A stretch of DNA of 64,000 nucleotides, taken from Escherichia phage SelmaRatti. The notes under the pieces were generated by a model that worked only from the letters and a program-made list of their open reading frames with translations, was not told the DNA's origin and did no database searches. Every line of letters begins with the position of its first letter. The first letter of the stretch is position 1. Positions 31,083 to 63,258 of the stretch are shown one piece after another. The position numbers were made by a program, and so were the translations under genes. The stretch lies in sequence record MZ501103; one strand, written 5' to 3'.

Positions 31083-31189
31083 TCTTTTGAATAGCTTAAT
31101 AATTAGGTCGGAATTTCCTCTAGCTAGTAAGTATAGCTTTTCATAATCGAAGAATTTAATTTTTGTTTTCTCCTCGAATTTATGTATAT

Positions 31190-31219
31190 ATTATACTAGA
31201 TTTCGAGAGAATTTAGCAA
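31190..31219 (-). promoter_or_regulatory. T5-type early promoter (TTGCTA-18-TATAAT) with conserved A+T leader
   Basis: reverse complement reads TTGCTA...TATAATATATACATAAATTCGAGGAG. Confidence 0.65.
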
Positions 31220-31302
31220 CTAAAATTTTTATTTTTCTGCTTCGGACTTTCTTATCAATCCGAAACTTTCTCTCTCAAATTTATGTATATATTATACATC
31301 AT

Positions 31303-39240: not shown

Positions 39241-39271
39241 CAAAAAGGGGAAGGAGCATAGCCCCCTCCCC
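39241..39271 (-). terminator. rho-independent terminator upstream of DnaB-like helicase gene
   Basis: - strand GGGGAGGGGGC tat GCTCCTTCCCC followed by TTTTTG. Confidence 0.65.
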
Positions 39272-39290
39272 TTAGGTTTAATTTACCAGA

Positions 39291-40058
39291 TTATTCAGCA
39301 GCCGCAGCTTTTGCATCCAGTTTAGCACGCTTAGCGGCACCATCATAGTCCTTAGCAACCAGACCACGACGAGACAGCATAGATTTAACACCGCGCTCAG
39401 ACTTACCAGTTTTCTCAGCGATCTCAGCAACAGTCATGTTAACCAGATCCAGACCTTCTAACAGATCTTCACGAGTTTTAGCACTTGAAGTTTCCTGTAC
39501 CGGCATAGCAGCGATACGACCTTCACGAAGCAAGCTCAGAGCTTTACCACGGATCTGCTTGATATTACGACCGAAGTGAGCAGCGATAGCTTCAATAGTA
39601 GCACCAGCAACAACCTGATTAACAAAATCAGTTTCTTCATCCGGAGTGAAGGAACGAACTGCAGCAGCTTTTTCGGTTGGCTTAACAGAAGCGGTCATTT
39701 CCAGACTCAGGATCTTACCCTGTACCTGCTTAGCACCGAACTGACCACCAGCTACAGCAGCAGCGATTTCAGCATAGGTATACTGACCATCATGAGCGTT
39801 CAGGAAATCAACCAGTTCAGCTTCCTGCTCAGGAGTCCACGGGGATTTCTGTACTTCGTTAGCTTTCTGTACTTCGAAACCTTCTTTACGCAGCTTAGAG
39901 CCAACAGAGCGAGCGGTAACGTCTTTGCCAGTTTCAGTAGCCAGTTCAGCAGCGATAGCGGCTACTTGTTCTTGAGAGATTACAGAAACACCCAGAGCAG
40001 TGGCTTTTGCTTTCAGAGACTCGGTTACACCTTCTACGTTCCAGTTCAGTTTAGACAT
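39291..40058 (-). CDS. hypothetical protein with four tandem HTH-like repeats
   Basis: 255 aa Ala-rich; ~35-aa repeats such as TVAEIAEKTGKSERGVKSMLSRRGL. Confidence 0.5.
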   Translation of the reverse strand: MSKLNWNVEGVTESLKAKATALGVSVISQEQVAAIAAELATETGKDVTARSVGSKLRKEGFEVQKANEVQKSPWTPEQEAELVDFLNAHDGQYTYAEIAAAVAGGQFGAKQVQGKILSLEMTASVKPTEKAAAVRSFTPDEETDFVNQVVAGATIEAIAAHFGRNIKQIRGKALSLLREGRIAAMPVQETSSAKTREDLLEGLDLVNMTVAEIAEKTGKSERGVKSMLSRRGLVAKDYDGAAKRAKLDAKAAAAE

Positions 40059-40830
40059 TATTATTTTTCTCCAATAGTTCTTTAATCGACAGGATTTCTA
40101 TCCCATTCGTTTCGGCTTTCTTATAAGATGAGGAAGAACGCTTAGATTCATCCTCACAGATTAGGTATTTAACGTCTTTGGTAACTGATTTTTTAACAGT
40201 ATACCCTAGACTTTCTAAATAGTTTGTTGCATCCGTTCTATTTGCAAAATCTTGCAAAGATCCGGTAATACATACCGCGATTCCATTTGGCTGGGCAACT
40301 AATTCATCTGTAGTGATAATATTAGCTTTAGTGCCCTTAATACCAGTTGAAAATTTCCACGGTAGTTCAATAACATCCTTGCCTTGTGGGGAATTTAGCC
40401 AGGCTCTATAGTTTTCTCCAGCCTTGCCGTCAGCCTTCACATCGTGGAAGCTAGTGCAATTTTGGGATAATTTCTTTGCTGCAACCTCTCCAATTAGAGG
40501 GATTCCTAAAGAACCGAGAACTGAACCAAAGTCAATGTCTCCGCGAACTTTAGTATTTAATTCGCTAATTAACTTAGCGGCAACCTTGCTACCCACGGCT
40601 CTAACCAAATCTTCTTCGGTTAGGTAAAATAGTTCTGAAATCTTCGTCAGCTCCAGCTTCTCAATAGTTTTTGGGCCAAAGCCCTTTAACTTCATTTTTG
40701 AACAGAAGTTCTCAATTAACTTACTTGATTGCGCTGGACAGTTGGACTTATTCCGACAGAATAATTGTCCGTTGACAAGATCTAGCTTAGAACCACAAGA
40801 GGGACATTGTGTTGGAATTTCGATTTTCAT
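40051..40830 (-). CDS. lig: NAD-dependent DNA ligase, C-terminal subunit (zinc finger, HhH, BRCT)
   Basis: CPSCGSKL...C..C zinc finger, HhH (GIPLIGEVAAKKL), C-terminal BRCT-like (VCITGSL); ATG at 40830 with AAGGAAG RBS. Confidence 0.8.
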   Translation of the reverse strand: MKIEIPTQCPSCGSKLDLVNGQLFCRNKSNCPAQSSKLIENFCSKMKLKGFGPKTIEKLELTKISELFYLTEEDLVRAVGSKVAAKLISELNTKVRGDIDFGSVLGSLGIPLIGEVAAKKLSQNCTSFHDVKADGKAGENYRAWLNSPQGKDVIELPWKFSTGIKGTKANIITTDELVAQPNGIAVCITGSLQDFANRTDATNYLESLGYTVKKSVTKDVKYLICEDESKRSSSSYKKAETNGIEILSIKELLEKNNNV

Positions 40831-40860
40831 CAAATTTCTTCCTTATCAATTTATATAAAT

Positions 40861-40889
40861 ATTATAGCAAGTATTTAAGCATTTAGCAA
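40861..40889 (-). promoter_or_regulatory. T5-type early promoter (TTGCTA-17-TATAAT) in ligase spacer
   Basis: reverse complement TTGCTAaatgcttaaatacttgcTATAAT then ATTTATATAAATTGATAAGGAAG leader. Confidence 0.65.
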
Positions 40890-41032
40890 CTACAATTTTA
40901 ACTAACTTTGCTTACCCTCGCCATAACTTTCTATCCCTCAACTGAATGATAATAGTATATACCTAAGCGGCGAAAATGTCAATAACCACTTTATAATTCC
41001 GATATGGTAGATGGGTAGCAAAGGGTTATGTA

Positions 41033-42004
41033 TTAATCGTATACTCGCTCTACTATACACGGGATTACACCACCAGCACGAATCACTCGAATTTGGCAAC
41101 CGATCTCTAGATCAAGAGAGTTAATATAATCAACGTTATTAAGAGTCGCTTTAACAATTGTAGCATCATCAATAATTACCGGTTCGAAATAACCAACTGG
41201 AGTTACTTTACCAGAAGCCCCTACCTGCCATTCAACTTTAGTAAGAGTTGTAATCTCGCCTTCTTCATCCTCTTTAATAGCGAATGCTCCGCGAGGGAAT
41301 TTATTAGTCCAGCCTTCTCGGAAGAATTTGTTGTTGTCATTAATACGAACAACTTTACCATCTGTCGGAATCCATTTAAAGAAGGAACGCACATTAACAA
41401 CTGTTAAGAAGTTCTCATTCTCTAGCCAAAGCATATCTTTTAAATACGTTTCTGTAATACCTACAGATTCAGCAGAACACTGGATACCATATGCAACGAA
41501 GATTAAACCACCTTCTCCGATACGTTGTACGAAATCATCACTATCTTTTAGGTTAATAGCACCAGAGGCAAAGTTACGTTTATTTTCTACTTCTTTTGTA
41601 ATTAGAACTTCACCAGTGATTTGAGTAGGTACTTTTTGGGAAATCTTTTTAGGGATGTTCAGCAATCTTACGTTGCTTGTGACATCATTCCCTAGAATAC
41701 CATTACCACGAGTTAGTGCTTGAACAAATTCGCCATTAATATATAACAAAGAAATCGCACAACCATCTAACTTATCAGTTTCTACCTGACCTAATGGGTT
41801 AAACGGAGGTTTATCCCCACGATTATAATAAACTTTCTGTAAAGAATACATACGATACAGATGTGGGATATCACCCTTAGGCCCGATCTCTTCTTCTAAC
41901 GGGAATCTTTTAATAAGACGATCATATTCTTCGTCAGAGATTAAAGACATTCCCTGGTAATACGCTTCTTGACAACGTTTAATAAAGTCTTTTATATTAG
42001 TCAT
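41033..42004 (-). CDS. lig: NAD-dependent DNA ligase, N-terminal subunit (adenylation + OB domain)
   Basis: N-terminal YY..M..ISDEEYD, adenylation KLDG motif (TDKLDGCAISLLY), OB-fold ending RAGGVIP. Confidence 0.85.
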   Translation of the reverse strand: MTNIKDFIKRCQEAYYQGMSLISDEEYDRLIKRFPLEEEIGPKGDIPHLYRMYSLQKVYYNRGDKPPFNPLGQVETDKLDGCAISLLYINGEFVQALTRGNGILGNDVTSNVRLLNIPKKISQKVPTQITGEVLITKEVENKRNFASGAINLKDSDDFVQRIGEGGLIFVAYGIQCSAESVGITETYLKDMLWLENENFLTVVNVRSFFKWIPTDGKVVRINDNNKFFREGWTNKFPRGAFAIKEDEEGEITTLTKVEWQVGASGKVTPVGYFEPVIIDDATIVKATLNNVDYINSLDLEIGCQIRVIRAGGVIPCIVERVYD

Positions 42005-42277
42005 TTATTCTGCCTCATAGTACGTGGGTTGTCTAGTGGATCCGTGCCATGTAAAATTTTTGCAGAGATGCAAATACGTGGTTTTTACTAGCCTACCTGA
42101 CAATGGAGAGTATATTTCAGCTATTAATACTTCTTTTTCGTAATGAAGTGAAATCAGCTTATACCCACTTCTAGTTTTAGTATACTTTTCTCCATTAATC
42201 TTCTCCTCCCACATAAGTATAAGAGGCTGTCCGATATATGGGAAAGGTTTAAGTGTACTTATATTTATCTTTTTCAC
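42005..42277 (-). CDS. hypothetical protein
   Basis: 90-aa ORF, GTG start with GAGGG RBS, downstream of promoter. Confidence 0.45.
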   Translation of the reverse strand: MKKINISTLKPFPYIGQPLILMWEEKINGEKYTKTRSGYKLISLHYEKEVLIAEIYSPLSGRLVKTTYLHLCKNFTWHGSTRQPTYYEAE

Positions 42278-42307
42278 TTTGCAACCCTCTCATTAATTTA
42301 TATAAAT

Positions 42308-42336
42308 ATTATATAACAAAACTGAGTTGAAAGCAA
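42308..42336 (-). promoter_or_regulatory. T5-type early promoter (TTGCTT-17-TATAAT)
   Basis: -10 42308-42313, -35 42331-42336; conserved ATTTATATAAATTAATGAGAGGG leader. Confidence 0.65.
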
Positions 42337-42342
42337 ATACAT

Positions 42343-42654
42343 TTATTCTTTTTCCGCCAGGCGTTTAGCTTCTTTTTCTACTTCTAATAAAACCTCACTA
42401 TTAGATAATATTTTAGTAAATGCCTTAAATAAATGAGATGTTGTTTCTAGAGTGTATGGCATACTGAATCCACTTTTTGTTGGAAACCATTCACCTTCTA
42501 TATCTTGGAGCCAGTACCTAATTCCTAAGTATAGATTCCCCCTAAACTCAGATACAGTTAGCCTAACCTGTTGGCCATCTTCTCTCTCCCAGATAACTAT
42601 GGACTGATCATCTACATGTCCAACATAATCCTGATTTACATTATCTCCTGACAT
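42343..42654 (-). CDS. hypothetical protein
   Basis: 103-aa ORF. Confidence 0.45.
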   Translation of the reverse strand: MSGDNVNQDYVGHVDDQSIVIWEREDGQQVRLTVSEFRGNLYLGIRYWLQDIEGEWFPTKSGFSMPYTLETTSHLFKAFTKILSNSEVLLEVEKEAKRLAEKE

Positions 42655-43301
42655 TTTATTGCTCCCTGACTTAGGAGATATTCCTCTGCCTCCTCTGGTT
42701 GAATACTGAAAAACTCAGTAGAACCGTCAAATATTGACTCTGTAAATATCTGCATACTAGAAAAGAATTGATGGGCTTTATTTTCTAGGGTATATGCAGA
42801 GCCTTCATAAGAGTATACCCCATGTATACTCAGATCCACCAAATTAGAATCTTTTTTGATCTCTTGAAGTCTTCTATCTGGGTTTTTAGATGTTCCTATT
42901 TTTGTTCCTAGCTGCGGGCTATAAAATAGATACAAATAGCTTGTAGCCGCACAGATAGGGCAAGATCTTCTAGCATTTTTAATCTTATCCACGCTGCTAG
43001 CCCATCTATGCCCTTCTACACACTCGAACTCTGCTTGACTACGGGAATTAATATAGGGAGATACAAGTTTTATACCCCTACTAGCTAGCTGTTGGTTTAT
43101 TTGCTCTACAGTAAGCTTAGCTTTATTACTACAATGTGGGCAACCACTACCCTTTCTTATATTATTTAGGTAAGCTTTCCATTGGTGGCCATTTAAGCAT
43201 TTAAACATGGCTGGTGTTCTTATGTTAACCCATTCACTTACTATACTAAAGCCTCGTGACTCTAACTCTTTATTTATTTGTTTTGCTGTTAACTTTTTCA
43301 C
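42636..43301 (-). CDS. zinc-ribbon (x2) + T5orf172 (GIY-YIG-like) domain protein, putative homing endonuclease
   Basis: Two C..GH.W......I..G.GCP.C repeats then LYLFYSPQLGTKIGTSKNPDRRLQEI block. Confidence 0.6.
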   Translation of the reverse strand: MKKLTAKQINKELESRGFSIVSEWVNIRTPAMFKCLNGHQWKAYLNNIRKGSGCPHCSNKAKLTVEQINQQLASRGIKLVSPYINSRSQAEFECVEGHRWASSVDKIKNARRSCPICAATSYLYLFYSPQLGTKIGTSKNPDRRLQEIKKDSNLVDLSIHGVYSYEGSAYTLENKAHQFFSSMQIFTESIFDGSTEFFSIQPEEAEEYLLSQGAIKCQEIM

Positions 43302-48174: not shown

Positions 48175-48672
48175 AACAATACTCCTGTGTTGGTTAATCG
48201 AAAATCTTTTCTTTAGGACTATTCAGAAAGAATAGAACAACTATTACTACTATTTACGTAAACATCAATTATCATCAAGCAATATGAATAAGTTATCATA
48301 TCTCAGTGCTGTGCTCTCTTCGCTCATATACAGAATAGAACCTAGGTCATTGGCCGCTAAGCCGATTCTATTTGTCCTCACTATCCTATTGGTAGGTGAC
48401 TACTGTACGTGCCGCCATTCGCTGCTCTTTTCGTTCGCACCCCCATATAAAGCTCTGCCTATATAACGAGCTAAATATGCACGGTTTGGATTTACCTTTC
48501 CGAATTCAGGGTACACAGATCACTTAATTGAAGATTAACTAATGCAATATAAACACTAGTAACAGTTAAAACAACCCTTAATGGGGCAGCCTAACTGTTC
48601 CGTATCGCGGATTGTAAACAAGAAAAATTAGCAAAATCAATTTTTACTAATGTCTCTCAATTCAATATAAAT

Positions 48673-48701
48673 ATTATATCAAGATTTTGAGCACCGTGCA
48701 A
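48673..48701 (-). promoter_or_regulatory. T5-type early promoter (TTGCAC-17-TATAAT) with no adjacent ORF
   Basis: -10 48673-48678, -35 48696-48701; conserved ATTTATATTGAATTGAGAG leader. Confidence 0.55.
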
Positions 48702-48740
48702 GTAAATTTTTCCCAAAGGTGCTATCAGTGTCTTTGAGTA

Positions 48741-58353: not shown

Positions 58354-58380
58354 GGAGATCTTCGGGTCTCCTTTTTCTTT
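58354..58380 (+). terminator. rho-independent terminator after nrdA
   Basis: stem GGAGATC/GGTCTCC with UUCG tetraloop followed by TTTTTCTTT. Confidence 0.8.
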
Positions 58381-58390
58381 GAAATTTTAC

Positions 58391-58419
58391 TTGCTAATCG
58401 CTACCAGATTTGCTATAAT
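58391..58419 (+). promoter_or_regulatory. sigma70-type promoter (TTGCTA-17-TATAAT) upstream of nrdB
   Basis: -35 58391-58396, -10 58414-58419; follows nrdA terminator. Confidence 0.65.
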
Positions 58420-58450
58420 ATTCCTGAAATAGTGAGAAAGAGGAAAATCA

Positions 58451-63175: not shown

Positions 63176-63191
63176 TTTTTAAAAAATTCAG

Positions 63192-63220
63192 TTGCTAAAC
63201 GCTTCAAATTCTCGTATAGT
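63192..63220 (+). promoter_or_regulatory. sigma70-type promoter (TTGCTA-17-TATAGT)
   Basis: -35 63192-63197, -10 63215-63220. Confidence 0.5.
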
Positions 63221-63258
63221 ATACTTCATAAATTGATAAACAAAAAGGAAAACAAATA

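Follow-up and report, generated by a model that had tools for sequence, protein, structure and literature searches.

Known two-chain and one-piece ligases

The split NAD+-dependent DNA ligase of phage T5, its genes and the promoters in the spacer between them are already known and annotated. According to a citation in PMC1684257, publication on the split enzyme goes back to 2005 (Wang et al. 2005, Virology 332:45), and the record of T5 st0 (AY692264) annotates ligA, ligB and the promoters P-K 28b and P-K 28a. An orthologous two-chain enzyme is represented by PDB entries 9HU3 and 9I5I, released in January and February 2026, whose title reads 'PR1 phage heterodimeric DNA ligase in complex with 21-mer nicked DNA...'. 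The chains of both entries are named 'DNA ligase (NAD(+))' (chain A) and 'DNA ligase subunit B' (chain B), and the 244 residues of chain B that were rebuilt from the alignment are 100% identical to LigB of Providencia phage PR1 (vB_PreS_PR1, Priunavirus). A literature search for split or heterodimeric ligases returned nothing beyond PMC1684257, and the publication behind 9HU3 and 9I5I was not found. The one-piece form of the enzyme is that of Escherichia coli LigA (PDB 2OWO), a single chain of 671 aa in which domain Ia, the nucleotidyltransferase (NTase) domain, the OB fold, the zinc finger, the helix-hairpin-helix (HhH) domain and the BRCT domain follow one another.

A ligase encoded by two genes in Escherichia phage SelmaRatti

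The DNA analyzed here, called the window, is a stretch of 64,000 nucleotides from Escherichia phage SelmaRatti (sequence record MZ501103). We conclude, with a probability of about 0.93, that one region of it encodes a T5-type heterodimeric NAD+-dependent DNA ligase. The ORF list and the sequence place both ligase ORFs on the minus strand, as an earlier note on this DNA had claimed, within the following arrangement.

42277..42005, minus strand: 90-aa ORF that abuts ligA, its TAA being followed immediately by the ATG
41033..42004, minus strand: ligA, 323 aa; short domain Ia, nucleotidyltransferase (adenylation) domain and OB fold (ORF, Pfam, PDB, residue check)
40831..41032, minus strand: ligA-ligB spacer, 202 nt, with two promoters (sequence)
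40051..40830, minus strand: ligB, 259 aa from the ATG; C4 zinc finger, reduced HhH and BRCT (ORF, Pfam, PDB)
39291..40058, minus strand: gene for a D5-like DNA-binding protein, 255 aa (ORF; HTH and sigma-70 region 4-like Pfam matches)
39245..39273, minus strand: terminator-like hairpin just past the D5-like gene, with a 13-bp stem, 8 G-C pairs and a T-run (terminator scan)

The domains are not all on one polypeptide. A TAA follows the OB fold, the 202-nt spacer after it has stops in all frames, and a new Shine-Dalgarno sequence and ATG then open ligB. The ORF lister puts the ligB start at TTG 40833; ATG 40830, from which the earlier note also counted, is the likelier start because it lies 7 nt past the Shine-Dalgarno sequence AAGGAAG. 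The gene order around the ligase (PC4-like, ligA, ligB, D5-like, dnaB) is that of the T5 early replication module, and records of relatives label the D5-like gene "D5 protein" or putative transcription factor.

The window is that of a T5-like phage (Tequintavirus). The T5 ligA and ligB (T5p114/T5p115, AAU05253/AAU05254) are the same genes with the same breakpoint and neighbors, the proteins of T5 isolate T5_ev212 are 98% (LigA) and 96.5% (LigB) identical to those of the window, and we see no difference of substance between the two, the window representing another Tequintavirus isolate. Over the 2.3-kb ligase region, identity to T5-like phages reaches 97.4%, with Escherichia phage HK6 as the best overall match. 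The same layout, annotated as ligase subunit A and subunit B, occurs in 429 records, and about 930 phage records hold a LigB homologue. When LigA and LigB were fused into one query, 1031 records covered at least 80% of it, and the ligase was in two separate pieces in all 25 best of the 1031. The split is conserved in Demerecviridae of Klebsiella, Providencia, Proteus and Vibrio. The record of Salmonella phage STWB21 begins inside the spacer and is uninformative.

Domains, breakpoint and conserved residues

The earlier note had assigned a KLDG-bearing adenylation/OB-fold portion to one ORF and a zinc-finger/HhH/BRCT portion to the other, and both assignments agree with what was found. KLDG occupies aa 78-81 of LigA (K78-L-D-G), which matched DNA_ligase_aden (PF01653; E 6.5e-24) and DNA_ligase_OB (PF03120; E 3.8e-22). 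LigB matched BRCT (5.9e-08) and HhH_2 (2.9e-05), the latter at 24.6 bits, which is below the Pfam curated cut-off of 27 bits, and its cysteines 9, 12, 25 and 31 align with the zinc ligands of E. coli LigA. The succession of OB fold, C4 zinc finger, HhH and BRCT of the one-piece enzyme is therefore present, spread over ligA and then ligB.

Alignment to E. coli LigA, run here to locate the breakpoint (E. coli numbering is marked Ec), bears out the claim that the split falls at a domain boundary. The break lies at Ec 393/394, in the linker that leads from the OB fold to the zinc finger; LigA ends at Ec 393, LigB begins in the linker ahead of Cys408, and LigB aligns to Ec 402-529 and 581-666. The same linker is broken in PR1 and in the Klebsiella, Proteus and Vibrio phages, where subunit A ends at Ec 391-393 and subunit B starts at Ec 394-402.

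The phage enzyme shares motif I (KxDG), motifs III, IV and V and the four zinc cysteines with E. coli LigA. In a residue check, the window LigA was found to keep K78, D80, G81, R99, E132, R143, D215, G216 and K244, among which K78/D80/G81, E132, D215/G216 and K244 align with Ec K115/D117/G118, E173, D285/G286 and K314, so that motifs I, III, IV and V of an adenylation domain are all found in LigA. We take Ec Y22, H23, D32, Y35 and D36, from the E. coli LigA mutational literature, to be the residues of domain Ia that bind NMN. Their counterparts in the window are Y15, Y16 (replacing the His), D24, Y27 and D28, and the site that goes with specificity for NAD+ rather than ATP is thus retained. 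The phage enzyme differs from E. coli LigA in the absence of about 20 residues of domain Ia and of Ec 180-195, and in a degenerate fourth HhH motif (G553 is Asp), three of the four HhH glycines being kept in LigB. Ec K290, R208, R277, R333 and T334 are further important positions of E. coli LigA. All seven phage lineages sampled have Arg in place of K290 and Asn or Gln in place of R208; in the window R208 is replaced by Asn, R333 by Ala and T334 by Ser, and R277 is without an aligned counterpart. Over the two halves, the core catalytic Lys and Asp/Glu, the four Cys and three of the four HhH glycines are present, and several other checked residues are substituted.

The two proteins also correspond to the two chains of the PR1 structure. 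Window LigA matched chain A of 9HU3 with an E value of 2.4e-104, and window LigB matched chain B with 5.6e-81. The AlphaFold model of LigA (pLDDT 93) had 9i5i_A and 9hu3_A as its best Foldseek matches, with a TM score of 0.73-0.75 between PR1 chain A and the model. The PR1 ligase has the same domain split as that of the window; it comes from a phage of another host genus, shows 57% amino acid identity in both halves and, by alignment, has a LigB about 11 residues shorter between the HhH and BRCT domains. Values of dN/dS of 0.06-0.17 for ligA and 0.08-0.15 for ligB indicate that both genes are under strong purifying selection.

Promoters in the spacer and transcription

The spacer, put at about 200 bp in the earlier note, is 202 nt long and holds both promoter matches reported there (40889..40861 and 40982..40954). 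Together with the ribosome-binding sequence of ligB and a promoter farther upstream, they make up the following set of elements.

42308..42336, minus strand: early promoter of the P-K28a class (TTGCTT-17-TATAAT), upstream of the 90-aa ORF (sequence; alignment with P-K28a and other copies)
40928..41002, minus strand: P-K28b, with -35 TTGACA at 40982..40977, -10 TATACT at 40959..40954 and a spacing of 17 (scan 11/12; identical to 'promoter P-K 28b' of AY692264)
40835..40909, minus strand: P-K28a, with -35 TTGCTA at 40889..40884, TG-extended -10 TATAAT at 40866..40861 and a spacing of 17 (scan 10/12; 'promoter P-K 28a' of AY692264)
40844..40838, minus strand: Shine-Dalgarno sequence AAGGAAG, downstream of P-K28a and ahead of ligB

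In the consensus promoter scan, P-K28b and P-K28a were the two best minus-strand matches in 4.5 kb; the scan by itself was not above chance, with 15 sites versus 11.3 +/- 3.7 in shuffles. Both promoters were judged real because they are conserved and 100% identical to the promoters annotated in T5, where they occupy the same position directly upstream of ligB. The spacer is 100% identical to that of T5 st0 (AY692264 58273-58484; 212 nt compared) and reaches an identity of 95% or more in 433 phage records. The tandem pair before ligB, its members about 95 nt apart, was kept in 7/7 Demerecviridae lineages sampled: relatives from Klebsiella, Providencia, Proteus and Vibrio have a strong -35/-10 match at the P-K28b position, about -150 to -160 relative to the ligB ATG, P-K28a is conserved at -57 to -61 from ligB across the family, and the PR1 spacer has tandem promoters too. 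P-K28a is a member of an early-promoter family that is repeated in the window, and T5 st0 has a 'putative promoter' annotated at the place equivalent to 42308..42336. A search of the literature for the promoter sequence as text gave no match. We take P-K28a and P-K28b to be the strong sigma-70 T5 promoters of the Bujard laboratory (Gentz & Bujard 1985).

Two further candidates in the spacer were rejected. The leader behind P-K28b folds well in the window (-26.1 kcal/mol, z -4.15), but no consensus fold emerged when seven members of the family were aligned. A mini-ORF behind P-K28b (MARVSKVS, 40924..40898) has lost its ATG in the Klebsiella phage and is absent in River4, and the peptides at its place in PR1, Stubb and VCPH are unrelated.

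We infer the exact transcription units of ligA and ligB from this layout. The ATG of the D5-like gene overlaps the stop codon of ligB (ATGTCTAA), which suggests that the D5-like gene is co-transcribed with ligB. P-K28b and P-K28a, as sigma-70 early promoters, would drive both genes up to a terminator at about 39250, and the hairpin at 39245..39273 is likely the end of this unit. The 90-aa ORF and ligA would be transcribed from the upstream promoter of the P-K28a class.

A probable heterodimeric ligase and the alternatives to it

The suggestion in the earlier note that the two genes encode a functional two-subunit ligase is well supported by the spread of the two-piece ligase among phage records, by purifying selection, by the retained core residues and by the heterodimeric structure from PR1. 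In the scheme that we propose, LigA, comprising domain Ia, the adenylation domain and the OB fold, would react with NAD+ to form lysyl-AMP on K78 and would perform the nucleotidyl-transfer chemistry. LigB, with its zinc finger, HhH and BRCT domains, would be the DNA-clamping half, a separate polypeptide corresponding to the C-terminal part of a one-piece LigA. The two together would encircle and seal a nick, as the PR1-phage heterodimer appears to do on nicked DNA, with the break falling in the flexible linker that joins OB fold to zinc finger. We infer that the LigA and LigB of the window associate and seal nicks because they are orthologous to the PR1 enzyme, with which they share, as given above, more than half of their residues in each subunit. 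Points against this reading are the changes at Ec K290, R208, R333 and T334, the missing counterpart of R277, the degenerate fourth HhH motif and a promoter scan that by itself does not exceed chance.

Two adjacent ORFs that together amount to one LigA-like protein could also be a broken ligase, either a pseudogene or a single gene interrupted by a sequencing or assembly frameshift. The probability of this is negligible, given that the layout recurs in hundreds of independently sequenced genomes, that ligB has its own Shine-Dalgarno sequence, ATG and promoters, all conserved among relatives, that dN/dS stays far below 1 for each of the two genes, that a gap of 202 nt, much longer in relatives, is unlike a frameshift, and that the ortholog was crystallized as two chains. 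It is also possible to picture the two proteins in separate jobs, LigA being a minimal stand-alone ligase or adenylyltransferase and LigB an independent DNA-binding protein or BRCT scaffold expressed alongside the D5-like protein. This would suit the tandem promoters of ligB and its operonic arrangement with the D5-like gene rather than with ligA, and a LigN fragment truncated at the boundary at which LigA ends, and equivalent to it, still self-adenylates normally (PMC1684257). However, ligA and ligB are adjacent or near-adjacent in 7/7 Demerecviridae lineages and in one metagenomic contig inspected, both halves are found in all 25 best of the 1031 matches to the fused query, and the two PR1 subunits make up a single complex on nicked DNA. 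In the literature on E. coli LigA, fragments without zinc finger and HhH are described as unable to join nicks. Taken together, these observations make separate jobs very improbable, although LigB may have an additional moonlighting role.

The remaining alternative, also raised in the earlier note, concerns origin only and is compatible with present function as a heterodimer. It holds that a one-piece ligase gene was once interrupted by a mobile element, such as a homing-endonuclease gene, a group I intron or an intein, whose loss left the split as a scar. Mobile endonuclease genes are numerous in T5-like genomes, and the window has a T5orf172/GIY-YIG-like ORF about 630 bp upstream of ligA. 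The slot between ligA and the promoter pair is variable and holds extra genes in relatives, and fused homologues of 555-586 aa in the same gene order indicate that fission did occur. Against this, two conserved promoters fill most of the 202-nt spacer, for which the ORF list shows nothing of 30 aa or longer and Rfam gave no match, to an intron or otherwise, at E<=1; the alignment shows no extra residues at the LigA C terminus or the LigB N terminus that could be intein halves, nor any intein-sized sequence at the junction. The endonuclease remnants that the earlier note would have sought in the spacers of T5-like phages did not appear: the gap genes of relatives, scanned with Pfam and PHROG, gave no endonuclease match and comprised one NADAR gene, one DprA-like gene and otherwise small, uninformative ORFs with no match or matches to families of unknown function. 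Extra DNA in phC11/phA11, suspected to be a spacer insertion, proved to be a 66-aa ORF upstream of ligA, outside the spacer. On this evidence, we regard a mobile-element scar as unlikely.

Fused relatives and the meaning of the split

Uncultured T5-like phages encode fused ligases of 555-586 aa that are 36-46% identical to the window LigA and have LigB-like C-terminal halves; two of these proteins, P0034 (566 aa) and P0043 (557 aa), reach 44-46% identity to LigA. These phages share the gene order PC4, ligase, D5-like, DnaB, primase and PolA, and in their ligases a linker of about 15-20 aa takes the place of the stop codon, the 202-nt promoter spacer and the new start of T5. The fused versions in the same gene order thus imply that the split arose by gene fission, or that re-fusion took place, at the linker. 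In a neighbor-joining tree, which was star-like, fused and split forms were interspersed; its resolution was too poor for fission events to be counted.

As a discovery the locus carries little weight, since the split ligase is annotated in hundreds of genomes, its promoters are named and an orthologous heterodimer has been in the PDB since 2026. What is added here is small, namely, the tandem promoters in 7/7 lineages and fused relatives that share the gene order. The system offers a clean case from nature of a multidomain enzyme that stays functional although it is divided at a linker, and the family-wide tandem promoters, the fused relatives and the variable slot for accessory genes make it useful for asking why T5-like phages keep their ligase in two pieces. 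One answer, tentative and rather unlikely, is that the fission is maintained by selection because it allows LigB, with the D5-like protein, to be dosed or timed apart from the catalytic LigA. The tandem promoters in 7/7 lineages, the intermingling of split and fused forms among uncultured T5-like phages and the use of the gap as a repeated landing site for accessory genes (NADAR, DprA-like) are compatible with such selection. If the fission is selected, LigB could be an abundant nick-binding protein or BRCT scaffold that recruits LigA only when needed, possibly in connection with programmed nicking of T5-type genomes or with NAD+-centered host defense.

Ligase genes, domains, and breakpoint

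The NAD-dependent DNA ligase of this T5-like phage is encoded by two genes, the products of which are referred to here as subunits A and B.

42004..41033, minus strand, ligA, an ORF of 323 aa
41032..40831, minus strand, ligA-ligB spacer of 202 nt, with no ORF of at least 30 aa in an ORF listing
40830..40051, minus strand, ligB, 259 aa counted from the ATG (a mechanical ORF list starts it at a TTG 3 bases earlier)

In Pfam, ligA matched two domains of NAD-dependent ligases, adenylation (6.5e-24) and OB fold (3.8e-22), and ligB matched BRCT (5.9e-08) and, more weakly and under the curated cut-off, HhH (2.9e-05). The KLDG motif occupies residues 78-81 of subunit A, and the C4 zinc finger of subunit B consists of cysteines 9, 12, 25, and 31. 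An earlier note made from the sequence was therefore correct in the coordinates and domains that it gave to the two halves. Its further claim, that the split falls at a domain boundary, was borne out when the window pair and six other phage pairs were aligned with Escherichia coli LigA and an unsplit jumbo-phage ligase: both halves were matched, subunit A ended at E. coli residue 393, and subunit B began in a short linker ahead of zinc-finger Cys408, so that the break lies in the OB/zinc-finger linker with only ~6 linker residues absent at the junction. A LigN fragment with the same end boundary still forms the enzyme-adenylate (PMC1684257).

Identity of the ligase region to T5-like phages reaches 97.4%; 446 phage records matched, and 429 of these carry nearly the whole 2.3 kb, with the genes annotated as ligase subunits A and B. 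The split ligase of T5 has been known since 2005 (Wang et al., Virology 332:45, as cited in PMC1684257). Subunits A and B appear as routine annotation in PMC3632103 and PMC4319617.

The residues checked in the alignment to E. coli LigA were those reported to be essential in mutational work of the Shuman laboratory. Domain Ia positions Y15/Y16/D24/Y27/D28 were mostly kept, as were K78, D80, G81, R99, E132, R143, D215, G216, and K244 of LigA, R309/V313/I314 of the OB fold, and, in subunit B, all four cysteines and three of the four HhH glycines, the fourth HhH being degenerate. In contrast, the motif IV lysine (Ec K290) is Arg (window R220, 41345-41347, minus strand) and Ec R208 is Asn or Gln (window N151, 41552-41554, minus strand) in all seven Demerecviridae lineages sampled, whereas the unsplit jumbo-phage ligase retains K and R there. 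Ec R277 had no aligned counterpart, and the window enzyme has Ala for R333 and Ser for T334. Purifying selection acts on both genes: in comparisons with four or five relatives, dN/dS was 0.06-0.17 (ligA) and 0.08-0.15 (ligB). AlphaFold modeled subunit A with high confidence (pLDDT 93).

Two PDB entries contain both orthologous chains together: 9HU3 (released 2026-01-14), titled 'PR1 phage heterodimeric DNA ligase in complex with 21-mer nicked DNA containing phage nick sequence', and 9I5I (released 2026-02-18), the title of which is a variant ending '(random sequence)'. The chain B sequence of 244 residues, reconstructed from the alignment to the PDB entry, is 100% identical over its length to LigB of Providencia phage vB_PreS_PR1 (PR1). 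The assembly of a functional heterodimer on a nick is thus documented structurally in an ortholog sharing 57% identity with the window enzyme in each half, and by orthology the window pair would act in the same way. Together with conservation and purifying selection, this supports the functional two-subunit ligase proposed in the earlier note.

A pseudogene or sequencing artifact is also excluded: both genes are conserved and under selection, and the crystal structures contain two chains. Independent functions for the two halves are unlikely because both always co-occur in the genomes inspected and the PR1 pair is found in one complex. The split could also have originated through a lost intron, intein, or homing endonuclease, and the earlier note had raised a scar of a lost mobile insertion; no trace of one was found, there being no Rfam match, no extra residues at the A/B junction, and no endonuclease match among the gap genes of relatives.

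Extent and origin of the split

LigA-like matches occurred in 1,188 phage records and LigB-like matches in 931. The ligase is split in the same linker in all seven Demerecviridae lineages inspected (T5-like, Klebsiella [Sugarlandvirus], Providencia [Priunavirus], Proteus [Novosibvirus], and three Vibrio), whereas jumbo-phage ligases, at ~30% identity, are unsplit. The content of the ligA-ligB gap varies.

T5, Klebsiella, and PR1: ~200 nt, no ORF
Proteus phage Stubb: 205-aa NADAR-domain gene (L003:3492-4109; Pfam 1.6e-31)
Vibrio phages VCPH and D36: one or two small ORFs
Vibrio phage River4: three ORFs, including a DprA-like gene (L006:4112-4672)

Stubb does have a DprA-like gene, but immediately upstream of ligA rather than in the gap. 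The NADAR and DprA-like genes may hint at an NAD/ADP-ribose theme beside an NAD-consuming ligase.

An exhaustive profile-free LigA search (E<=1e-30) gave 127 clusters at the 50% identity level. Most of the best 80 of these were stand-alone LigA-type proteins of 305-335 aa, and 13 were proteins of 555-586 aa, with LigB-like C-terminal halves in all six that were read. Contigs of uncultured T5-like phages encoding such homologs have the T5 replication-module gene order.

P0034 (fused): ligase, D5-like, DnaB, primase, PolA
P0043 (fused): PC4, ligase, 237-aa protein, DnaB, primase
P0035 (distant split form): LigA, 86-aa ORF, LigB, 238-aa protein, DnaB, primase, PolA

The D5-like protein of the P0034 contig is 38% identical to that of the window (E 3e-47), and ligB of P0035 has its own TTGACT-17-TATAAT promoter. 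In T5-like phages, then, one and the same gene position is occupied by a ligase in a single piece or in two, meaning that a gene was split (or re-fused) at the OB/zinc-finger linker. In a quick NJ tree, cultured Demerecviridae formed one all-split clade; the tree was star-like with fused and split forms interspersed, and the number of fission or fusion events is not readable from it.

Spacer promoters and transcription unit

The spacer is 100% identical to that of bacteriophage T5 st0 (AY692264), in which ligA is T5p114, ligB is T5p115, and two promoters are annotated between them.

41002..40928, minus strand, P-K 28b, including the TTGACA-17-TATACT candidate of the earlier note
40909..40835, minus strand, P-K 28a, including the strong T5-type promoter placed by that note at 40889..40861

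Both candidates are thus annotated T5 promoters, conserved in relatives. A consensus scan alone was not above chance (15 sites versus 11.3 +/- 3.7 in shuffles), with these two sites as its best minus-strand matches. P-K28a belongs to a repeated early-promoter family with an A-rich upstream element (A-tract), TTGCTA, a 17-nt spacer, TATAAT, and then ATTTATATAAATT; copies identified by sequence alignment are found at 31177-31229 (-), 48657-48710 (-), 58379-58422 (+), and 63183-63239 (+), and another precedes the 90-aa ORF adjoining ligA (42336..42308, also 42289-42313, minus strand). The end of ligB runs into the beginning of the gene for the D5-like DNA-binding protein, after which a terminator scan placed a strong terminator-like hairpin (39273..39245, minus strand); transcription from the P-K28 promoters therefore most probably covers two genes, ligB and the D5-like gene.

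Across the 210 nt upstream of ligB in the window and six further phage loci (L007, L013, L003, L004, L005, and L006), the final ~160 nt held two strong -35/-10 matches in all seven lineages, at nearly fixed positions from the ligB ATG (-150 to -160 and -57 to -61). The pair is kept in enterobacterial and Vibrio Demerecviridae whatever genes sit upstream, and between T5-like and Klebsiella phages the block is conserved far above synonymous sites of the flanking genes. The tandem promoters thus accompany ligB as a module across the Demerecviridae. A conserved 'ATTATCAT...TTGAGGGA/TTGGGGA' element after the distal -10 looks like an initial-transcribed sequence plus Shine-Dalgarno, and no conserved ORF lies behind it in the seven loci compared.

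Several other features were noted. Between the two promoters (40898-40924, minus strand) is a mini-ORF of eight codons, MARVSKVS, that has a plausible Shine-Dalgarno but no conserved counterpart in the Klebsiella and Vibrio relatives. The predicted P-K28b leader RNA (40825-40948, minus strand) has an unusually stable fold (-26.1 kcal/mol, z -4.15) that pairs with the P-K28a -10 region; no consensus structure was found across seven family members. A strong antisense promoter-like match in the ligA 5' end (TTGACA-18-TATATT, 11/12; 41969-41998, plus strand) is probably due to chance in AT-rich DNA. P-N 25 and P-N 26 are annotated in the T5 record (L015, AY692264) at 1-62 and 1014-1088. Their distances upstream of ligA in T5 st0 are 2.3 kb and 1.2 kb, and their window equivalents should lie near 43.2-44.3 kb. 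The T5 promoter used in common expression vectors derives from P-N 25. A 221-aa ORF (42636-43301, minus strand), situated between the PC4-like gene and the early gene that follows, combines two treble-clef zinc-finger repeats with a T5orf172/MUG113 (GIY-YIG-like) domain; T5 isolate T5_ev212 has no gene there, and so the ORF probably represents a mobile insertion of the endonuclease type.

Most of this was already known, namely the genes and their split, the two promoters, and the heterodimeric mechanism; the comparison adds the conservation of the tandem promoters throughout the family, the syntenic relatives with a fused ligase, and a variable slot for cargo genes, one of them NADAR. A mildly interesting possibility is that LigB is dosed separately through its own promoters.
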